NCBI RefSeq assembly: GCF_036321535.1 | Contig: NC_087436.1 | Span: forward strand, 24,368,001-24,432,000 | Reading direction: 5' to 3' | DNA: 64,000 nucleotides | Origin: Camelus dromedarius | Lineage: Eukaryota | In this document: piece by piece, positions 7,436 to 64,000 of the stretch | How positions within the stretch are numbered: position 1 is the first letter of the stretch | Layout: every line of letters starts with the position of its first letter | Translations under genes and position numbers: made by a program | Notes under the pieces: generated by a model | Seen by the model: only the letters and a program-made list of their open reading frames with translations | What the model was told of the DNA's origin: nothing | Database searches by the model: none

Positions 7436-7571
7436 GGGGAGGGTATAGCTCAAGTGGTAAAGCACATGCTTAGCATACATGATGTCCTGGGTTCAATCCC
7501 TAGTATCTCCTCTAAAAAATAGATAAATAAATAAACCTAGTTCCCTCCCCTCCACCAAAAAAAAAAAAAAA
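7436..7571 (+). mobile_element. tRNA-derived SINE (camelid Vic-1-like)
   Basis: GGGGAGGGTATAGCTCAAGTGG (A box), GGTTCAATCCC (B box), poly-A tail, 17-bp TSD AAAATTAYAGCATTTCA. Confidence 0.9.
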
Positions 7572-11771: not shown

Positions 11772-11903
11772 GGGGGAGGGTATAGCTCAGTGGTAGAGCA
11801 CATGCTTAGCATGAATGAGGTCCTGGGTTCAATTCCCAGCACCTCCATTTAAAAAATAAATAAATAAAATAAATAAATAAACCTAATTACGCACCCCCTC
11901 CCC
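11772..11903 (+). mobile_element. tRNA-derived SINE (Vic-1-like)
   Basis: Same consensus as 7436; TSD AATATGCT. Confidence 0.9.
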
Positions 11904-16246: not shown

Positions 16247-16371
16247 TTTTTTTTTTAAATTGGGGGGTGGTTAGGTTTTATTTATTTATTTAGATTGAGG
16301 TACTGAGGATGGAACCCAGGACCTCCTGCATGCAAAGCATGCACTCTACCACTGAGCTATACCCTCCCCCC
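16247..16371 (-). mobile_element. tRNA-derived SINE (Vic-1-like)
   Basis: Reverse complement of the consensus (..CTCTACCACTGAGCTATACCCTCCCC). Confidence 0.9.
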
Positions 16372-17178: not shown

Positions 17179-17304
17179 GGGGGAAGGGTATAGCTCAGTG
17201 GCAGAGTACAAGCCTAGCAGGTATGAGGTCCTGGGTTCAATCCTCAGTACCTCCATTAAGAAAAATAAATAGATAAGCCTAATTACCTCCCTTCGCCCAC
17301 CAAA
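17179..17304 (+). mobile_element. tRNA-derived SINE (Vic-1-like)
   Basis: Consensus match; TSD AGAAATTAT. Confidence 0.9.
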
Positions 17305-26060: not shown

Positions 26061-26204
26061 GGGGGGAGGGTACAGCTCAGTGGTAGAGTGCATGCTTAGC
26101 ACGAACGAAGTCCTGAGTTCAATCCCCAGTGCCTTCATTAATAAATAAATAAATAAATCTAATTACTCCTCTCTCAAATAAAATAGTAAAAAAAAAAAAA
26201 AAAA
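26061..26204 (+). mobile_element. tRNA-derived SINE (Vic-1-like)
   Basis: Consensus match with (AATA)n and poly-A. Confidence 0.9.
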
Positions 26205-29950: not shown

Positions 29951-32549
29951 AATGTTATAAGCTTTATTTAATCAACGGTAACTTAAAGTGTCCAAAGATT
30001 CACCCAAGAATGAGAATTTCCAGTTTGGGAGGGGAAAATGATTTACTGGCTACCACTCAGAGAATTTAGTCTTCTCTTGTGTTCCTCATGTTGACTGTCA
30101 CTCCCACCCTTAAAGTGGGTCCAAAAGGGTCTTTCCCTTGCTTAACATTCTGGTATAAAAGTGGGGACAACCTCTTCCCTTGGTTAGCTTATCACAGTGA
30201 AGACAGGCTGACATTTAAAGAGAGACTTTCTTAGATAATTAGAGAAAACAAAGGGAAAATAAACAGAGAAAAGAAGTACAGAAAAGCATTCTACCTAGTC
30301 CACATATTATCTAATCTTTATATCTATTTACATGCATGTATATGTACATAAATGCACAGAAAAAGTCTTAAGTTTAATGCTAAACTATCATTTATCGTTA
30401 TTTGTGTAACAGTGGAGGTATGGGATGGCTGGGTATTTGTGGAGTATGAGGGGTGGAAAGAAAAGTCGAGAAGGAAAGGAGACTTGGCTGTTTAAAAAGT
30501 ATTTTGTATTATTTGAAAATTGATGAGAATATATTAATGAATCACTTGTGTAATTAAAAAATTAACTGTGTAATATGAAAAAACAGGAGCAAAAGCAATC
30601 TAGTTACTACATAAAGATCTCCTATTCTGTGATCATTATAGGACTACTGGCCACATCAGCCCTTTCCTACTGAAGCTGAGGTCTTTAGAATGCTTTGCTA
30701 CAAACTTTTTGAGTTTCTTACTTTATCAGCTTCCATAAGGGATGTCTTTCCAAGACCACTACCAAAGAGTTGCCTGAGAGACATGCTTGGCACCTTCAAG
30801 GCCAAAACACAGTGCTTAAAACAATTCTTTTTTTTCTTTGCAGATCACTGGCTTCAAGCTGCTAGAGATGCTTCAGACCCACTCCATGTCTCTCATTCTG
30901 CCAGCAGACTACCCAGGCGCGTTCTTCACATTGTGAAAGTGTGAGAGAGGCAAGCAGCAACATGTGATAGCTCCTAAGGTCAGGCTCAGAACTGTCACAC
31001 TGTTACCCATACTCCTTTGGCCAAAAGCAAGTGGAATGATCTAAGTCCAACATCAGTGGAATGGAGAAACATTGTCTCTAATGAGAAGAACTACAAGGCC
31101 ACATTTCAAAGGGCCTCCACAGAGCAGTGAAAAATTGGGAACACTAATGTTATTTACCACTGGGACTTTCTACCTGGGATTTTCCAGCTTACTTTCAACT
31201 GACAGTAGCGGAGGTGTATTTCCTCTCGTGGTAGCTGAACAGGAATGATTTGACCCAGCAGATGAGATCTGTTCCTAACAATACAAATCAAATGTTGTTG
31301 TATGCTCCTTAATATGCCATGTTATTGTCACCGAGATGCAGCCGTACTGATTAATTCATTACAAATATCAAAGTGGGTAATGGTTCCCTTAAGTGATAGG
31401 TTATTTTACAGGAAATAGGGGATTAGAAATACTGCTCCAGAAAGGATGCTGTTTGCAGTGTCCTGTTTAATGTGTAATGTTTGAATATTACATAAATTCT
31501 TTATCCAAAAGAATGCCAAGAACCGCCATGTTTTAGATCTCGGGAATCCATGAAACTTGGGAAGAGTTCAGAGGATCTTAGACTAACCCTATTTACTATC
31601 CAGATTTCCCCTATGTTTAAAAGTAAAAAATCTCTTAAGAAGTCCCCAGAAGAGAGGAAAGAATCCTTCCCCTCCCCTCCTCTCCTTCCTACCCCTGTAA
31701 ATAAACAGGCATTAATAGCTTAAACAAAAAGAATGAAAAGATTTAAGTTCTTCGGTTCTTCAGAGTAGGGCCTCCCCCTGGTTCTATGACATTTGAGCCC
31801 TACTCTAGGGTTATTTCCATGGTTTCCACGTTACTTTCAAGAACAGCCACCACTTGTATTCCTCAGGGTTTCTTCTTCGCTCAGGACTGGTTGTGGAGCC
31901 GCAAAAAGAGTAGTCTGGAGCCCGGAAACCAACCTGGGGAATACTGCACCAGGTCCACCGGAGTGAGGCTGCAGAAGCCCGAGAGGGGAGCAGAATCGGC
32001 CCCCACGCACACTGGGACAGTCACTGCTCTTTGTTAAACAAATACAAGAATATGCGGCGGCGGCGGCGAAGGGTGGTAGTGGGGGAATAGATGGAGGCGT
32101 TTGTATTCATAAATGCGTAAGAAAGATCATTAACAAGGCGCTCCAAACGCAGGACAACCCAGGACACCGTGTCATCGGCTTTTGTGCACTTGAAGGCGGC
32201 TAAGTGCCCTGCTCAGAGGTTCCCCTTTGTGTGAAAGTAGGGAAACCAGAAGCGTGCAGCTACTGCTGCGTTTTCATTTTCGAATTCGCAGGCACTTGGA
32301 CTAAAATACTCCCGCACCAACACACTCCCGCATTCTCACATCGACATTCCTCGGACTTCAGTTACTTCTTCGTCCGTCGACGACCGAGCGAGGGGTGACA
32401 ATGGCTCAATGCGGGGGCCCGCAGCTCTGGGGGCAGCGCCAAGGGGCCGCCCGCCGCGCTCCGCAGCTGCGCGCTGAGCCCCACCGTCGGCCCGTCAGCA
32501 AACGCGGGCACCAACCGCCGCGCAGCCCGGCCGTTGGGCGGGTGGTAAT

Positions 32550-32569
32550 TTCTGGGAATGGGGCGGGGC
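32550..32569 (+). promoter_or_regulatory. STAT/GAS-type site TTCTGGGAA next to Sp/KLF GC box GGGGCGGGGC
   Basis: Exact matches to TTCN3GAA (32550-32558) and the GC box (32560-32569); binding not shown. Confidence 0.45.
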
Positions 32570-33199
32570 CCGCTGGGTACAAGGCCCAGGGTTTGCAAGC
32601 GGGGAGGAGGAGGAAGAGAAGGAGGAGGAGGAGCGGGCGGCGCCGAGGGGCGCGTGGAGGGCCGGGTTGGGCGCCACGAGCGTCACGGGCCGGGGGCGGG
32701 GCCGGCGGCTCGCTTCTGCGGGCCCGCGCCCCCACCTTCCATTTAGCCTAGGCTGAAGAGTGGAGACCGGAGGGGTCCGGGCTAGGAGTTTCAACAACCT
32801 CCGACCCCCAGTAACTGTCAGGCTGCCCGAGTGCGGAGCCGTCTCTTGAGGAGAAAGGGGGGGAGTCTAGAGCTGGGGATGGGGTGACAGCTGGGGCCCG
32901 CGGGGGGGCCTCAGAGGGTGTGTGCGTGCGGTCCGGGCAGGCGGGCGGGCGCTGCAGGTGCACGGGCTGCCCCGCCGCCCCCACCCGCCTGCCTGCACTT
33001 GGGAACCCCCGCTCCAGTCCCGGAGTCGGGAGCGGGATGGGGGAGCCCCGAGCAGGGAGCGGGACAAGTGGGGAGAGACTTTACCTGAGAAGGCGGGTTT
33101 CAGAGAAGTTGAGGGCTACCGGCCGGGCGAGATTCGGGAGAGCCACCGAGGCATGTTGGGCGGGCTGGTGGGGGCCGAAGGCGGCAGAACCCCGCGAGG

Positions 33200-33207
33200 T
33201 ATAAATA
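33200..33207 (+). promoter_or_regulatory. TATA-box-like element TATAAATA in CpG island
   Basis: Isolated AT octamer matching TATAWAW in GC-rich context, ~460 bp upstream of the exon 1 donor. Confidence 0.45.
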
Positions 33208-33534
33208 GCCGGCCAGGGTTTGACAGGCGTGGCGGTGACTGGCGGTGCCGCCCCCCCCTCGCCGCGTGGGGAGGGGAGGAGCGCTCGGAGCGGGCGGGGT
33301 GGGGGAGGCGGACTCGAGTGTCCTGGTGGCGGCGGCAGGAGGCCGAGGGGGAGGAGCCGAGGCGGGGGGTGAGGGAGGGGGCCGGGAGCGGGACGAGGGC
33401 GGGGGCCACCATTGCTCCCCGCGCCTGGCTCACTGTCGCCGCCGTCGCCGCGGCGGTTGGGGGTCGGTGGGGCGGCGCAGGCGGGGGTCTCTGCGCGGGG
33501 CGGCGCGCCGCTGTTTTGTCTCCTCCTCTCCCAG

Positions 33535-33662
33535 TGGAGCGGCTCGGGCTGCTGGGGAGGCCCCGGCTCCCTCCGGACGGCCGGCCAACGGCGGCGGCTA
33601 GTCCGCGGCCCTGCCGGGAGGGAAAGCGACGCCGCGGTCTTCCCGGGCGACGCGGAGAGCAG
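33535..33662 (+). other. ELF2: ELF2 exon 1 (5'UTR, GC-rich); 3' end firm, 5' end uncertain
   Basis: Consensus donor CAG|GTAAGA at 33662/33663 inside the CpG island. Start set at an acceptor-like site; true TSS(s) may be further upstream. Confidence 0.7.
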
Positions 33663-35459
33663 GTAAGAGCGCGGGCCGCTGAGGCTGGTGGGAGGGAGCT
33701 CGGAGGGTGCGGCGAGAAAGCCTCGCTGTCCCGAGTGCCGCCACCTCCCTCCGCGTCCCCGCCCCGCGCCTGTGTTGTTTGCGGAGGGTTTTCCGGAGGC
33801 TGTGGCGGTGACACCGACTGGGAGCTGGGGAAGGGGGCTGAGTGCCCCCGGGCAACGGTCGGGGAGCAGGACTTGGAGAAAGGGGAAGGCGCGCGGCGCG
33901 TCCGCCCGCGGGGCGCGCGGTGCGCGGGGCAGGGCTGAGGGAAGAGGTTACGGACCCCGGCGGTGGGGGGGATGGGCCGAGCGCAGCTGGTCTCGCTGTG
34001 TTTACATCGCCGCGCGAGTCACCTCTGCCGAGAAGCGGACTGAACTGACCTGCCTTGTCCCGCGGGGAGGCCAGGGCGGGGGTCCGGCTCCGGAGGAAGC
34101 GCGTCCTGGGAGGGTCGGGTAGGGCGGGAGGCTGCGGCCGGCGCCGGGGCGGGACCTGGGAGGCTCTGGCCGCGTGGGGTGGCGTGGAGGGCTGGAGACC
34201 AGTTTCCTTCCCTGTCGGGCCTCGCCGCCCCCTCTTACCTTTCCTGCCCTCCGCGGCTAGCTGGCACGGCAGGTTGTAGTCGGTCATTCTTTTATTCTCC
34301 CTCTCCACGCCGGCCCCCTGCTGCCACTTCCCCCTATTCCCCGGGGGTGGGGAGGCTGGGCTCTGATAGGAATCTGTTTTTTAAACAAAACAAAAACGGG
34401 CTCTGTAACACGCGCGTCCAGTGACCGCCTTCTGGATCCTCTCCTCTCGAAGCTGGTTCTCGGGGACGGTGCTCCTGGGTGTTTCGGGGGCGCGGTAGGA
34501 GGACGGTGAGGGCTTTGCTAGGGTTGATACTGACTGCCCAGGCAGCTTTGCGAGCAGGGTAGCTGGAGTCCCCTCTCTTGCTCCATTTGGGCATTTTTAT
34601 TCCATGTCAATAAAGGACAGAGAAAATATTCCATTACCCTAAGAGTAATCCAGATTGCACAGTTTCCAGTGTTTCTTATGTGCCAGCATCCTGGGCTCTT
34701 GTTTTCTAGGATCTAGCTACGCTGCAGAATAGCCTTTCTTTAAGTTCTTGGTACTTGATTAAATGAGTAAGAGGGGGGCACTTTATTGTAAAAGTGAATT
34801 TCACCCCCTTTCTTGTGCTCATGAACATTTATTTCAGCTGTGTGGTTTAAATTTTAATCCAGTGATGATAGGATAGTAATCTGGTGTTTGGTAATCAGAT
34901 TTGCTTTTCTTTTTATTTGTGAGTCTCTGTCGAGAGTAAATAATGCACTTTGTCTAGTGCCGTAATCACAGAATAGTGGCAGAATCACAGAAAAATATAC
35001 ATTTTACCAAGATAGGACTGAATATTTGAGTTTCAGAGTTTATTCCTTTCTTCAAAAGGTAGAATGACATTGTGTAAGACTAGAAACTATTGAATTACTT
35101 TTAAAGGGTTTTAGGAATAAAGTTTATATGTAGTGTAATATAGTTTACACATTGAGTTCATATGAATATTGTTGAAATATCTCCTAGTAAACACGTAAAG
35201 TAGAAAATTGAAATACTTTAGGCATTTGGAATTTGAAAATTTAACGTCAACCTATTGTTTAATCTTAGTGCTGGAACTAATTACTTTGATTAATCATTGC
35301 TTTTCATTTCAGATATATGTATACTAATTTACAAAATAATCACAGTAGGTTGTAAAGAATTTATTTTTCTATCCTAAGTAGATAGTAACTGTGGCTGTGG
35401 TAGGGCCTATCAGTGTTGATGGCTTTACCTGCTAACAGATTGTACACTAAGGTTTGTTG

Positions 35460-47104: not shown

Positions 47105-47184
47105 TGTATATGGAAATACTGGGGATTGAACTCAGAACCTCATGCTTGCTAGGCATGCGCTTTAACACTGAACTATGCCCTCCC
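46990..47184 (-). mobile_element. tRNA-derived SINE with internal (TA)n(TATG)n expansion
   Basis: Consensus match; the usual (TTTA)n linker is replaced by ~80 bp of microsatellite (47030-47111). Confidence 0.88.
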
Positions 47185-50992: not shown

Positions 50993-51107
50993 TTTTTTGG
51001 GGGGTGGGTTGGGAGGTTTACTTATTTTTGGAGAAGGTACTGAGGATTGAACCCAGGACCTCATGCATGCCAAGCATGCGCTCTACCACTTGAATGATAC
51101 CCTCCCC
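50993..51107 (-). mobile_element. tRNA-derived SINE nested in an L2-like relic
   Basis: Reverse-complement consensus match. Confidence 0.87.
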
Positions 51108-52632: not shown

Positions 52633-53614
52633 CCAAGAGGGAATTGAAAAGGAGTAGCTAGCGAGGGAGAAGATAAATTTGAAGATAGAGTTTCAAGGAG
52701 GGAGTGATCAGCGCTGTCAAATGCTTCAGAGATGTTAAGTCCTATGAAGACAGAAATGTATCCATTGGATTTGATAAGAAGAATTTAGTAAAAATTTCAG
52801 TTGGTGGTGATGGATGCCTAACTTCCATAGAAGGAGTACCTGAGAAATTAGGAAGTGGAGACAGCATATGAAAGATTTTTTTTGTAGAGTCTTACCCAAT
52901 AAAGGAAGGAACTAGAGCAGTAAGCTGAAGGGGTATGTATGCAGGATCATGGAGGAGTCATGTTTAAGATGAGAGAATCTGTAAATGTTTAGATGTTGAG
53001 GGAAAAGACTCAATGTTAAGTAAGAGAATTAAGGGAAAAGAGGGAATAATTGATGGAACAAGACCTTAGATTCAGTGCATAGGTCAACAGATTAGCTTTA
53101 GAAAGGTGGAGGGCTATTTGAAGAGGCTTAGGAGGTCTGGATGTATATGGATGCCAAGTTTGGAGGGTGAGAGGGCAGAAAGTTGAGTAGCAGGAGAGTT
53201 AACAGGCAATAATATATCATTAATATTGTTTTATAATAGTTGTTTGGGTTAGTCTTTTTAAACTTGATTTTATACTCCTGGGGTTCTGGGGTTATGCCTG
53301 CAGCCACTTGTTAAAATCCTGTTGGTTGATTGAAATATAACCCATAATATGGGGCATGGGCTATATGTCTTGGGCTCTGTCCTTACTCAGTAATTGTTAT
53401 TTAGTAGTGACTTAAAATTTCAAGTTTGAAAAAAGCTGCTGATTCCTCAATAGCCTAGGAATAATTTCTTTATATGTTCATTACATAATGTGTGCCATCA
53501 AGCTTTGGAGATGGTTTGTTGTAATAAGTGTATACTGTCTGAATCACACCTACTTTGGGCAAAATATTTTTTAATAGAATTATATTAATACTATCTTTTT
53601 CCCCCCACTAGTAG

Positions 53615-53699
53615 TTCCAGAGAACTGCTGGTCTATATTTTAGCTCTTGCCAAGTTGTGAAAATAGTGAAAGATGCTTAGACTACTTAACATTCAAACT
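53615..53699 (+). other. ELF2: ELF2 exon 2 (5'UTR); start 53612 or 53615 because of tandem TAGTAG acceptor
   Basis: Polypyrimidine tract CTTTTTCCCCCCAC followed by TAGTAG, donor ACT|GTAAGT at 53699/53700, in non-repeat sequence 1.3 kb before exon 3. Confidence 0.75.
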
Positions 53700-54980
53700 G
53701 TAAGTAAAATTTATTTCTGCTATTATTATCTATATGATTAGAAATCAGAAATTGAAAATAGTTGTTTCCTAATATGATAATAGTGAGCTTTAGTGTGATG
53801 GGATTGTGGATTTTTCTTAATTTTCATTCTTAAGATCCAAATACATCTTATCCCATTTTCTGTTGATAAGATCAAAAAGAGACTAGTAGTACTGATGTGT
53901 CTTAGATAGTGAGGTGAAATTTCTGCTCTTTTCCCCAGGTATTTCTTTTTATTATAGCAGTTTATGAAAATTCTGTATTATTTTATTTCTATATCTGTAT
54001 GGTACCAGTGTTCAAACTTAATATAAGACACAGTATTAATGGAATGATTAATTAGAAATGTATATTCTTTTCTCTTTAAATATACTTACATCTTCTACAT
54101 TCTTTAATTTTTATATTAAAAAATACTATTAGAAATAAATCTCTAATTTCTCTATGAAATATTTAACATACACAAAATAAAATAAAGTGTAACTTTCTAG
54201 AAATAATCTAATGTATAAATCTAGATGATGTACATAATGACACTCATCTCTACTGGGGGAAAAGCTTGAATTACGTTTACTGAATTCACTTGCTACATTG
54301 CATTTTGAACCAATGGCAAAAAAATTGAGGAAAGAGTGATAAAGTAATATGAAAGGCATTCTAAGTCATTTTACTACCTTATTTTCAAACTACTGTTTTT
54401 GAAAGTATAACTCAAATTAATCTGTTTTACAGACCTTATAGAATATTCAAAATGTGAACACAAAATGATTGCTACCATAACCAAAAGAGAATTCTAATTA
54501 ATTATTCAAATAAACAAACCAAATGAGCCAAAGAAGAATGAAATATTTACAAACCAATAAATCTTCTAATTTGTTAGAGACGAATGATTTTAGAAGTTGT
54601 CACTGTCCAGCACATTTAATGTTTTCAGTGCATAAAAAATTGTTTAAATGTCAGGAATTTTTACCAAAATATTTCAGGAATAACAGTATATCTTCATCAA
54701 GAGAGAAGGTTACAACATTTTATGTCTTAGAATATAAATATAATAAGGTCATTCATGTGCAACAGAACATTATTTCAGATTGTAATCTTATTTCAAATTG
54801 TTCAAGAACTTGACAGTTCTAAGCAGAATGCTCATTAGTGCCCTCTTTTGACGCAGGGCTGTATAGGCCTATCTTCTTTTTCTTAGTTTACAAAAATGTT
54901 AAAAATTAGATTGCAAAATATGTTGTTTTATATCCTCCTTGTGTAGTTTTAATAACTTTTCAAATTCTTCCCTTTTTTAG

Positions 54981-55219
54981 GCTTTCTGGTTAATCATCTT
55001 TAGAAGACTGGATTTCTGGATATCTACTCTACTCCACTTCTGTTGACTTTTAAAACATGATAATGCAAACCTGTAATACTGGCAATCATCCATGAACCTT
55101 TAATTACATTGATTAATAGCGTTTGAAGCTTCCTCAGGGAATAAACAATGACATCAGCAGTGGTTCACAGTGGAGGTTCTATTTTGGAGCTTTCCAGCAA
55201 TGGAGTAGAAAATCAAGAG
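54981..55219 (+). other. ELF2: ELF2 exon 3 (167 nt 5'UTR + 72 nt CDS)
   Basis: Acceptor TTCTTCCCTTTTTTAG|GCT at 54980/54981 and donor GAG|GTTAGG; contains the start codon. Confidence 0.85.
55148..55219 (+). CDS. ELF2: First coding segment (24 codons) of E74-like ETS transcription factor 2 (NERF), long isoform
   Basis: Translates MTSAVVHSGGSILELSSNGVENQE, matching the recalled human ELF2 N-terminus MTSAVVDSGGTILELSSNGVENQE at 22/24. In-frame TAA two codons upstream (TAA ACA ATG). Phase-0 donor GAG|GTTAGG at 55219/55220. Too short for the ORF track. Confidence 0.93.
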
Positions 55220-55600: not shown

Positions 55601-55704
55601 TTTATGTTTTATTTATTTACTTATTTTTAATGGTGGTACTGGGGATTGAACCCAGAAACTTGTCGTGCTGAGCATGCACTCTACTACTGAGCTATACCCG
55701 CCCC
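55601..55704 (-). mobile_element. tRNA-derived SINE (Vic-1-like)
   Basis: Consensus match; TSD ATTCATTTT. Confidence 0.88.
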
Positions 55705-59846: not shown

Positions 59847-59976
59847 TTTTTTTCAGAGGGGAGGATTTAATTAGATTTACTTATTTATTTATTCTTAGAG
59901 GAAATAATGAGATTGAACTCAGGACCTCATGCATGCTAAGCATGCACTCTACCATTTGAGCTATAACCTCCCCCCC
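59847..59976 (-). mobile_element. tRNA-derived SINE (Vic-1-like)
   Basis: Reverse-complement consensus match. Confidence 0.88.
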
Positions 59977-63243: not shown

Positions 63244-64000
63244 TCTTATGGAGAACTAGGTAGGTTGTACCAAGACCTGCTGAATCTAGATTTCATGCAT
63301 TTTAATTATTGCATATTTTGAAGACTTGAGCAAGAGTATGGTGATCCTGAATAAAATGACCTAGAAGTTGTGTAAGTTTTTACTATATTATTATAAAACA
63401 AAGACTCCTAATTCTTTTATTTTCCACCCTTTCTCCAGTGAAAATAGCTAACTCCTCTGTACAGCACAAAGCAGTAATTATCTGCCTATCTGTATGCAGT
63501 AGCCTCTGGTCCCTATCATTTGACAGGAAAAAAACTCATGAAGTTACTTGCCATCATAGATTAGCAAATGTTGAATTTATGAATATATGTTAATATTAAA
63601 ATTCATTAAGCTTTATCATTCTTTGAACCAAGCTACAAATACTTAAATGCCAATTCAGTTTATATGAAGTGCATGTTGTTGAGGAGGATATAAAAATTGA
63701 CTAAGATGTGGACTCTTGCTCCCAATCATCTTACTGTCTTGTCAAGGAGTTGGCTATGTAAACAGGTAATTATAATACAGGATAATGCACAGTGGTAATT
63801 ATAGTCAAACAACTTGTTCTAGAAGTACTTGGGATGGGAAAATTGACTCAGATTGGGGGATTATAGAAGACTCCTGGAACTTGGCCCTTAGTGAGTGAAA
63901 AAGATTTGTACAAGCAATGGAAGGTAATTTCAGGCTACAAAATGAACACAAGCAAAAGTCAGGGAAGCTTTTACTTTTGAGAAATAGGAGCAAAGCAAAT

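Follow-up and report, generated by a model that had tools for sequence, protein, structure and literature searches.

An intron-split upstream ORF in the ELF2 leader of Camelus dromedarius and its putative role as a brake on ELF2A

Does the leader of ELF2 in Camelus dromedarius encode a small protein of its own, or does a short frame that is put together by splicing serve to restrain translation of the gene? The question was raised by a sequence-only reading of the window (the whole stretch of DNA analysed here, 64,000 nt in length), in which a hydrophobic upstream ORF of 30 codons (uORF1) was noticed, starting in exon 2 and ending in exon 3. It was suggested to be either a translational brake on the long ELF2 isoform or a membrane- or mitochondria-associated micropeptide, with skipping of exon 2 acting as a switch, and it was left unsure whether the ORF had already been catalogued. 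As described below, uORF1 is already known in human and hence is no new ORF; it is probably an ordinary conserved regulatory uORF.

Structure of the leader and its human counterpart

The gene can be recognised from exon 4, which lies outside the window (C1:24436639) and is matched by the Pfam family Elf-1_N, with paralogs on C13 and C37. Among the 120 of 465 protein matches listed for exon 4, the best named ones are ELF2, and the joined translation of exons 3 and 4 is an exact prefix of the Camelus ELF2 records P0202, P0009 and P0017. All leader features are on the forward strand. The 3' part of exon 1, a CpG-island first exon (G+C of 0.70 in nt 32001–34000), spans nt 33573–33662 and is followed by a donor GT at nt 33663 that agrees with the consensus at 8 of 9 positions; ELF2 models of bat (P0008) and pig (P0021) match its frame and end at this donor. 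Exon 2 (nt 53615–53699) carries the start of uORF1. Its 5' end is at nt 53612 or 53615 (a tandem AG), the acceptor candidates having 16–17 pyrimidines out of 20.

The ATG of uORF1 is at nt 53673, with A at -3 and C at +4. Its first nine codons (27 nt; nt 53673–53699) run in phase 0 up to a GTAAGT donor at nt 53700, and a GT-AG intron of 1281 nt (nt 53700–54980; 1545 nt in human by the coordinates of the catalogue table described below) ends with a pyrimidine tract and an AG at nt 54979–54980. The remaining 66 nt in exon 3 (nt 54981–55046), which correspond to a human piece of the same length, hold codons 10–30 and the stop codon TGA (nt 55044–55046), giving 93 nt and 30 codons in all. Coordinates, phase and peptide thus agree throughout with those of the sequence-only reading, the exon 2–3 junction being predicted from the GT-AG signals and the human exon split. 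The further statement that uORF1 exists only after splicing holds for the 30-residue form but not for the ATG at nt 53673 itself, which in unspliced RNA opens a frame of 22 codons running into the intron.

No ATG is found in the exon 1 region upstream (nt 33201–33662), and in the exon 1-2-3 leader no AUG precedes that of uORF1. When exon 2 is included, the frame is open for just 31 codons ahead of its stop, so that uORF1 cannot extend further upstream. The stop lies 101 nt upstream of the main ELF2A ATG (nt 55148), whose first 24 codons (nt 55148–55219) reach the 3' end of exon 3 (nt 54981–55219; 239 nt, ending in phase 0). Between uORF1 and the main start, two more uORFs are predicted: uORF2 (nt 55057–55095), of 12 codons with in-frame ATGs at nt 55057 and 55063, both with A at -3, and uORF3 (nt 55092–55103), of three codons in weak context, which ends 44 nt ahead of the main ATG. 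In structure, uORF1 belongs with the translated uORFs of the GENCODE Ribo-seq class, as its start and stop are both upstream of the main ORF and it has at least 16 codons. Exons 2 and 3 each match the genome once, with no second copy or processed pseudogene, and an Rfam scan gave no family at uORF1.

A human ELF2 uORF with two exons of 27 and 66 nt and a product of 30 residues, c4riboseqorf97, is listed in supplementary file 2 of Sandmann 2023 (PMC10032668). When the human and camelid peptides were compared by eye, 27 of 30 residues were identical, the differences being at positions 26, 29 and 30; the gene, the two exons and the length are the same. Judged by its sequence, uORF1 is the camelid ortholog of GENCODE Ribo-seq ORF c4riboseqorf97, and the ORF had therefore been catalogued before it was noticed here. 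The 'riboseqorf' of its name presumably marks the replicated set of the catalogue. Two ORF sets make up that catalogue (10.1101/2021.06.10.447896). The row for c4riboseqorf97 gives 'primatomorpha - young', an unknown mode, one MS study, and PhyloCSF scores of -70 in primates and -603 in mammals, where 'young' denotes a median BLASTp score below the cut-off across non-primate mammals (PMC10032668). Among titles and listings, no paper on an ELF2 uORF was found; literature matches to 'elf2' look from their titles like misprints of eIF2. The main texts of PMC13275300, 10.1101/2025.07.07.663426 and PMC7530721 make no mention of ELF2; uORF1 may be listed in their supplements.

Conservation and age of the frame

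The human ORF is filed as primate-young, whereas an intact copy is present in a camelid, with 90% identity, and the locus is to this extent a counter-example to the catalogue label. No difference between human and camelid occurs in residues 1–25; all three are confined to the final five positions (a probability of about 0.003 under a uniform spread, calculated post hoc). The overall identity (27/30) is on a par with that seen over the ELF2 codons of exon 3 (22/24). The neutral distance between human and camelids is about 0.3 substitutions per site. In a neutral simulation with substitutions only and no indels (20000 runs per distance), an intact frame with at least 27 identities was obtained 24, 5, 1, 0 and 0 times at 0.20, 0.25, 0.30, 0.35 and 0.40 substitutions per site, respectively. 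Since neutral drift hardly ever reaches this state, the DNA of uORF1 is constrained.

While the full-length comparison covers human and camelid, ELF2 models of rabbit and chinchilla extend it for codons 1–9: both keep the AUG, the nine codons and the phase, with seven of nine residues identical in each. The AUG, the length to the donor and the phase are thus common to primates, Glires and a camelid, and the intact camelid copy, together with what rabbit and chinchilla retain, argues that the start of uORF1 is older than the primates. The 'young' label may reflect a greater divergence in other mammals, or a problem in aligning a peptide encoded across two exons. Short length as its sole cause found no support, as an exact match of 25 residues would pass the cut-off (E of 5e-13 in a mock database with a newer BLAST).

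What seems to be constrained is the DNA and the frame rather than the amino acids. The six known substitutions are all one-base changes, and four of the six have negative BLOSUM62 scores (mean -1.0), compared to a mean of -0.59 and 52% negative for random one-base changes; they look random, in a test that rests on six changes only. Non-conservative changes include L4Q in rabbit, and T9I in both rabbit and chinchilla. A model of unconstrained codons evolving at about 0.04–0.05 substitutions per site fits the data, which amounts to a uniform slowing at the level of bases. Constraint on a frame without an amino-acid signal is the common case for catalogued uORFs, 45.8% of which have an ORBLq above 0.9 while 2.5% have a PhyloCSF above 10 (PMC13275300). 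uORF1 resembles this class of frame-conserved regulatory uORFs (high ORBLq, low PhyloCSF) in that start, stop and frame are kept across placental orders and PhyloCSF is negative. As a putative member of the class, it differs in its unusually high amino-acid identity in the single full comparison.

A 21-base pattern of exon 3 gave no matches in metagenome contigs, and none of 599 candidate metagenomic stretches was confirmed for the exon 4 protein. One of 600 candidates from prokaryote genomes, a 41% match in a Planctomycetota MAG, was taken as a chance similarity.

A putative brake on ELF2A, weighed against other readings

The explanation that we regard as reasonably likely is that uORF1 is a conserved and translated regulatory uORF, acting independently of its peptide sequence as a putative brake on ELF2A, the long, activating isoform. 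Several features make a brake plausible: the AUG of uORF1 comes first in the leader, position -3 is A, human Ribo-seq shows translation of the counterpart, and the frame is conserved. The GENCODE Ribo-seq entry c4riboseqorf97 shares the exon split and has the high identity described above. Owing to the A at -3, scanning ribosomes would often start at the uORF1 AUG, and ELF2A would then be made only by leaky scanning past it or by reinitiation, for which the spacer to the main ATG would hold two more uORFs. ELF2A and ELF2B arise from different promoters (PMC5371273). Less ELF2A would thereby be made relative to ELF2B, which has a promoter of its own (P3) and would escape the leader. It would be the act of translation that matters rather than the peptide, which would be a short-lived by-product, hydrophobic and non-canonical and for that reason probably soon degraded. 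A CRISPR screen described in a preprint likewise indicates that most uORFs act through translation (10.1101/2025.07.07.663426). The balance between ELF2A and ELF2B has been linked to cell survival and to the development of lymphocytes (PMC5371273), and a brake on the ELF2A leader alone would add a further control on it. The identity of residues 1–25 weighs against this explanation, as constraint on the peptide would lead to it as well.

A function of the peptide as such is rather unlikely, whether it were to act as a nascent chain by which the ribosome is slowed or stalled (as in a conserved-peptide uORF) or as a small protein associated with membranes. Besides the identity of its first 25 residues, and an overall identity like that of coding sequence, it has in its favour the one MS study in the catalogue table (PMC10032668) and a Trp/Phe/Arg-rich middle in which the best helical moment is found (residues 16–26), although 25 of 155 intronic ORFs reach the same moment. 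The strongly negative PhyloCSF of the human ORF in that table and the changes L4Q and T9I speak against it. So does the composition of the chain. The charged residues are R3, R17, R18 and D20, with H28 in addition. A mitochondria-targeted microprotein would have a positively charged amphipathic helix at its N-terminus; three Arg and no acidic residue before position 20 might suit one, but the best moment lies further along the chain and is shared by the intronic ORFs counted above. A single-pass membrane segment of about 19 uncharged hydrophobic residues is lacking, as R17, R18 and D20 split the chain and the longest uncharged run is 13 residues. The usual Kyte-Doolittle cut-off for a transmembrane segment is 1.6 over 19 residues; the best such value in uORF1 is 1.18, which 38 of 155 intronic ORFs reach. 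Over the whole peptide, 18 of 155 intronic ORFs and 817 of 5000 shuffles have a hydropathy at least as high. The fraction of L, I, F, W, V and M is above background (reached by 7/155 intronic ORFs and 100/5000 base shuffles), but hydrophobicity as a whole is close to the chance expectation of U-rich DNA. Hydrophobic peptides from U-rich non-coding DNA, examined as C-terminal tails on reporters, are sent by BAG6 to the proteasome (10.1101/2022.07.20.500724). The idea of a membrane or mitochondrial micropeptide is accordingly not borne out, given the absence of a transmembrane-length stretch, the near-chance hydrophobicity and the negative PhyloCSF. The microproteins ASDURF, MIEF1-MP and that of the SLC35A4 uORF are likewise products of the 5' leaders of protein-coding mRNAs, but they are longer and have coding-type conservation, whereas uORF1 has a negative PhyloCSF and no segment of transmembrane length. 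As a new microprotein, uORF1 is a weak finding.

Very unlikely, in our view, is a frame that is merely carried along, in exons conserved at the base level for splicing signals, RNA-binding sites or the promoter P2, with the ORF translated to little effect on ELF2. The negative PhyloCSF and the 'young' label (PMC10032668) fit such a passenger, as does the agreement of the data with unconstrained codons. The ELF2A promoter P2 also arises at 'exon II' (PMC5371273), which we infer from the exon numbering in PMC9691287 to be the exon of uORF1. Yet in rabbit and chinchilla the AUG and the phase persist though neighbouring codons have changed, and stable RNA structure does not explain the conservation of exon 3, in which none was detected (z of 0.33, with 123 of 200 shuffles folding equally well). 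Moreover, upstream AUGs in good context usually lower the output of the main ORF.

Exon skipping and neighbouring features

Skipping of exon 2, proposed as the switch, finds no support among protein models, some of which join exon 2 to exon 4 or exon 1 to exon 4; a form joining exon 1 to exon 3 would be invisible in protein records. Bat and pig models (P0008, P0021, P0142) join exon 1 (nt 33573–33662) to exon 4 in frame, without exons 2 and 3. If exon 1 (nt 33201–33662) is joined instead to nt 54981, the uORF1 frame is open for 175 codons and contains several CTG, GTG and ACG codons. Loss of exon 2 would remove the AUG, yet with a frame this long it might not silence translation of the frame.

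A candidate switch is rather the skipping of exon 3. Since the 3' ends of exons 2 and 3 are both in phase 0, such skipping puts the uORF1 AUG in frame with exon 4, and in camel the join of exon 2 to exon 4 is open. The nine codons of uORF1 in exon 2 would then also be the first nine of an ELF2 isoform. A start of this kind was found in 4 of 267 fetched ELF2 records, from baboon and mangabey (both UniRef), rabbit (XP_069903656.1) and chinchilla (XP_013370735-8), numbered P0010, P0033, P0060 and P0122; 198 have the canonical start, three join exon 1 to exon 4, 29 are other or partial, and 33 are without the exon 4 motif. The rabbit and chinchilla forms are exactly the canonical protein with 24 residues replaced by 9. 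These four records ranked highest when proteins were ordered by their match to the junction, and no further starts of this type were seen among the matches listed (the best 120 of 354, and all 58 in a second junction search), the cluster members of which were inspected in part.

The AUG might on this basis be used in two ways, opening the brake when exon 3 is included and acting as the main start of an ELF2A variant when it is skipped. Skipping would remove all three uORFs, replace 24 N-terminal residues by 9 and probably allow more efficient synthesis, while selection would retain both the AUG and its phase. We consider such a splicing switch unlikely, although it is compatible with the brake and draws on the shared phase, the open join and the records from four species. 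Those records are annotation models, not proteomics, none of them is human or camelid, and four stand against 198 canonical starts. The agreement in phase has a one in three chance, and the three records that join exon 1 to exon 4 suggest that splicing in this region is loose. Nor is it mentioned in what PMC5371273, PMC9691287, PMC4307332 and PMC10325915 describe of ELF2 isoforms and splicing, namely the promoters P1, P2 and P3, the acceptor of exon 7, and additional exons farther downstream. Similarly doubtful is the wider claim that one AUG has served since the ancestor of primates, rodents and camelids as a brake with exon 3 and as the main start without it, the 'primate-young' label being wrong. 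If correct, regulated skipping of exon 3 would alter how much of an activating ETS factor is made and which N-terminus it carries, and would be a compact case of splicing converting a repressive uORF start into a main start. Under the preferred reading of uORF1 as a brake, an ELF2 variant can still begin at this AUG in transcripts lacking exon 3, but it would be a minor form.

Transcripts that fuse a uORF to the main ORF (mORF) are a known concept and are screened out in ESUCA, where a uORF-mORF fusion ratio under 0.3 is required of CPuORFs (PMC7530721). With four fused and 198 canonical starts, uORF1 falls under this ratio, protein records serving here as a proxy for RefSeq RNAs. As in the ESUCA fusions, there is a splice variant of ELF2 in which the uORF start is in frame with the main ORF; in contrast to them, this variant has just the first nine codons in common with the uORF and is minor among protein records. 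ESUCA also asks for a peptide kept in two or more additional orders, on which uORF1 offers human against camelid at full length and codons 1–9 in rabbit and chinchilla, and for a low Ka/Ks, against which the negative PhyloCSF and the random-looking substitutions point.

In the leader of the ELF1-like paralog on C13, one frame resembles the exon 3 part of uORF1 (score of 33, reached by 3 of 661 intronic windows and 55 of 2000 shuffles), while the similarity of the DNA is ordinary (389/661). A shared origin was rejected and the likeness is probably due to chance, since an in-frame stop precedes the C13 frame, neither paralog locus has a counterpart of exon 2 (best score of 8 versus 42 for the control), and the human table of PMC10032668 has no ELF1 or ELF4 ORFs. 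A frame in the leader part of the first coding exon of this ELF1-like gene (C13:49834787-49834558, minus strand, locus L010) is open for 76 codons and runs into the coding region, for which base composition gives a probability of about 0.016 in any of three frames; an overlapping uORF with its start in an upstream exon could end in this way.

Intron 3 of ELF2 holds an alternative first coding exon of 20 codons (nt 63706–63765, forward strand; donor at nt 63766), identical to the N-terminus of an alpaca ELF2 model (P0211, XP_072793486.1) and to no other N-terminus inspected. Chinchilla and shorebird models (P0147, P0170) share a similar alternative N-terminus of 5–6 residues, but neither the window nor locus L027 yielded a start that matches it. 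The Rfam scan of the window gave no SRP-like matches and nine tRNA-like ones (nt 7439–7511, 11776–11847, 16296–16366, 17184–17255, 26066–26137, 47111–47182, 51032–51104, 55631–55701 and 59900–59970), which are most likely copies of a tRNA-derived SINE and not tRNA genes.
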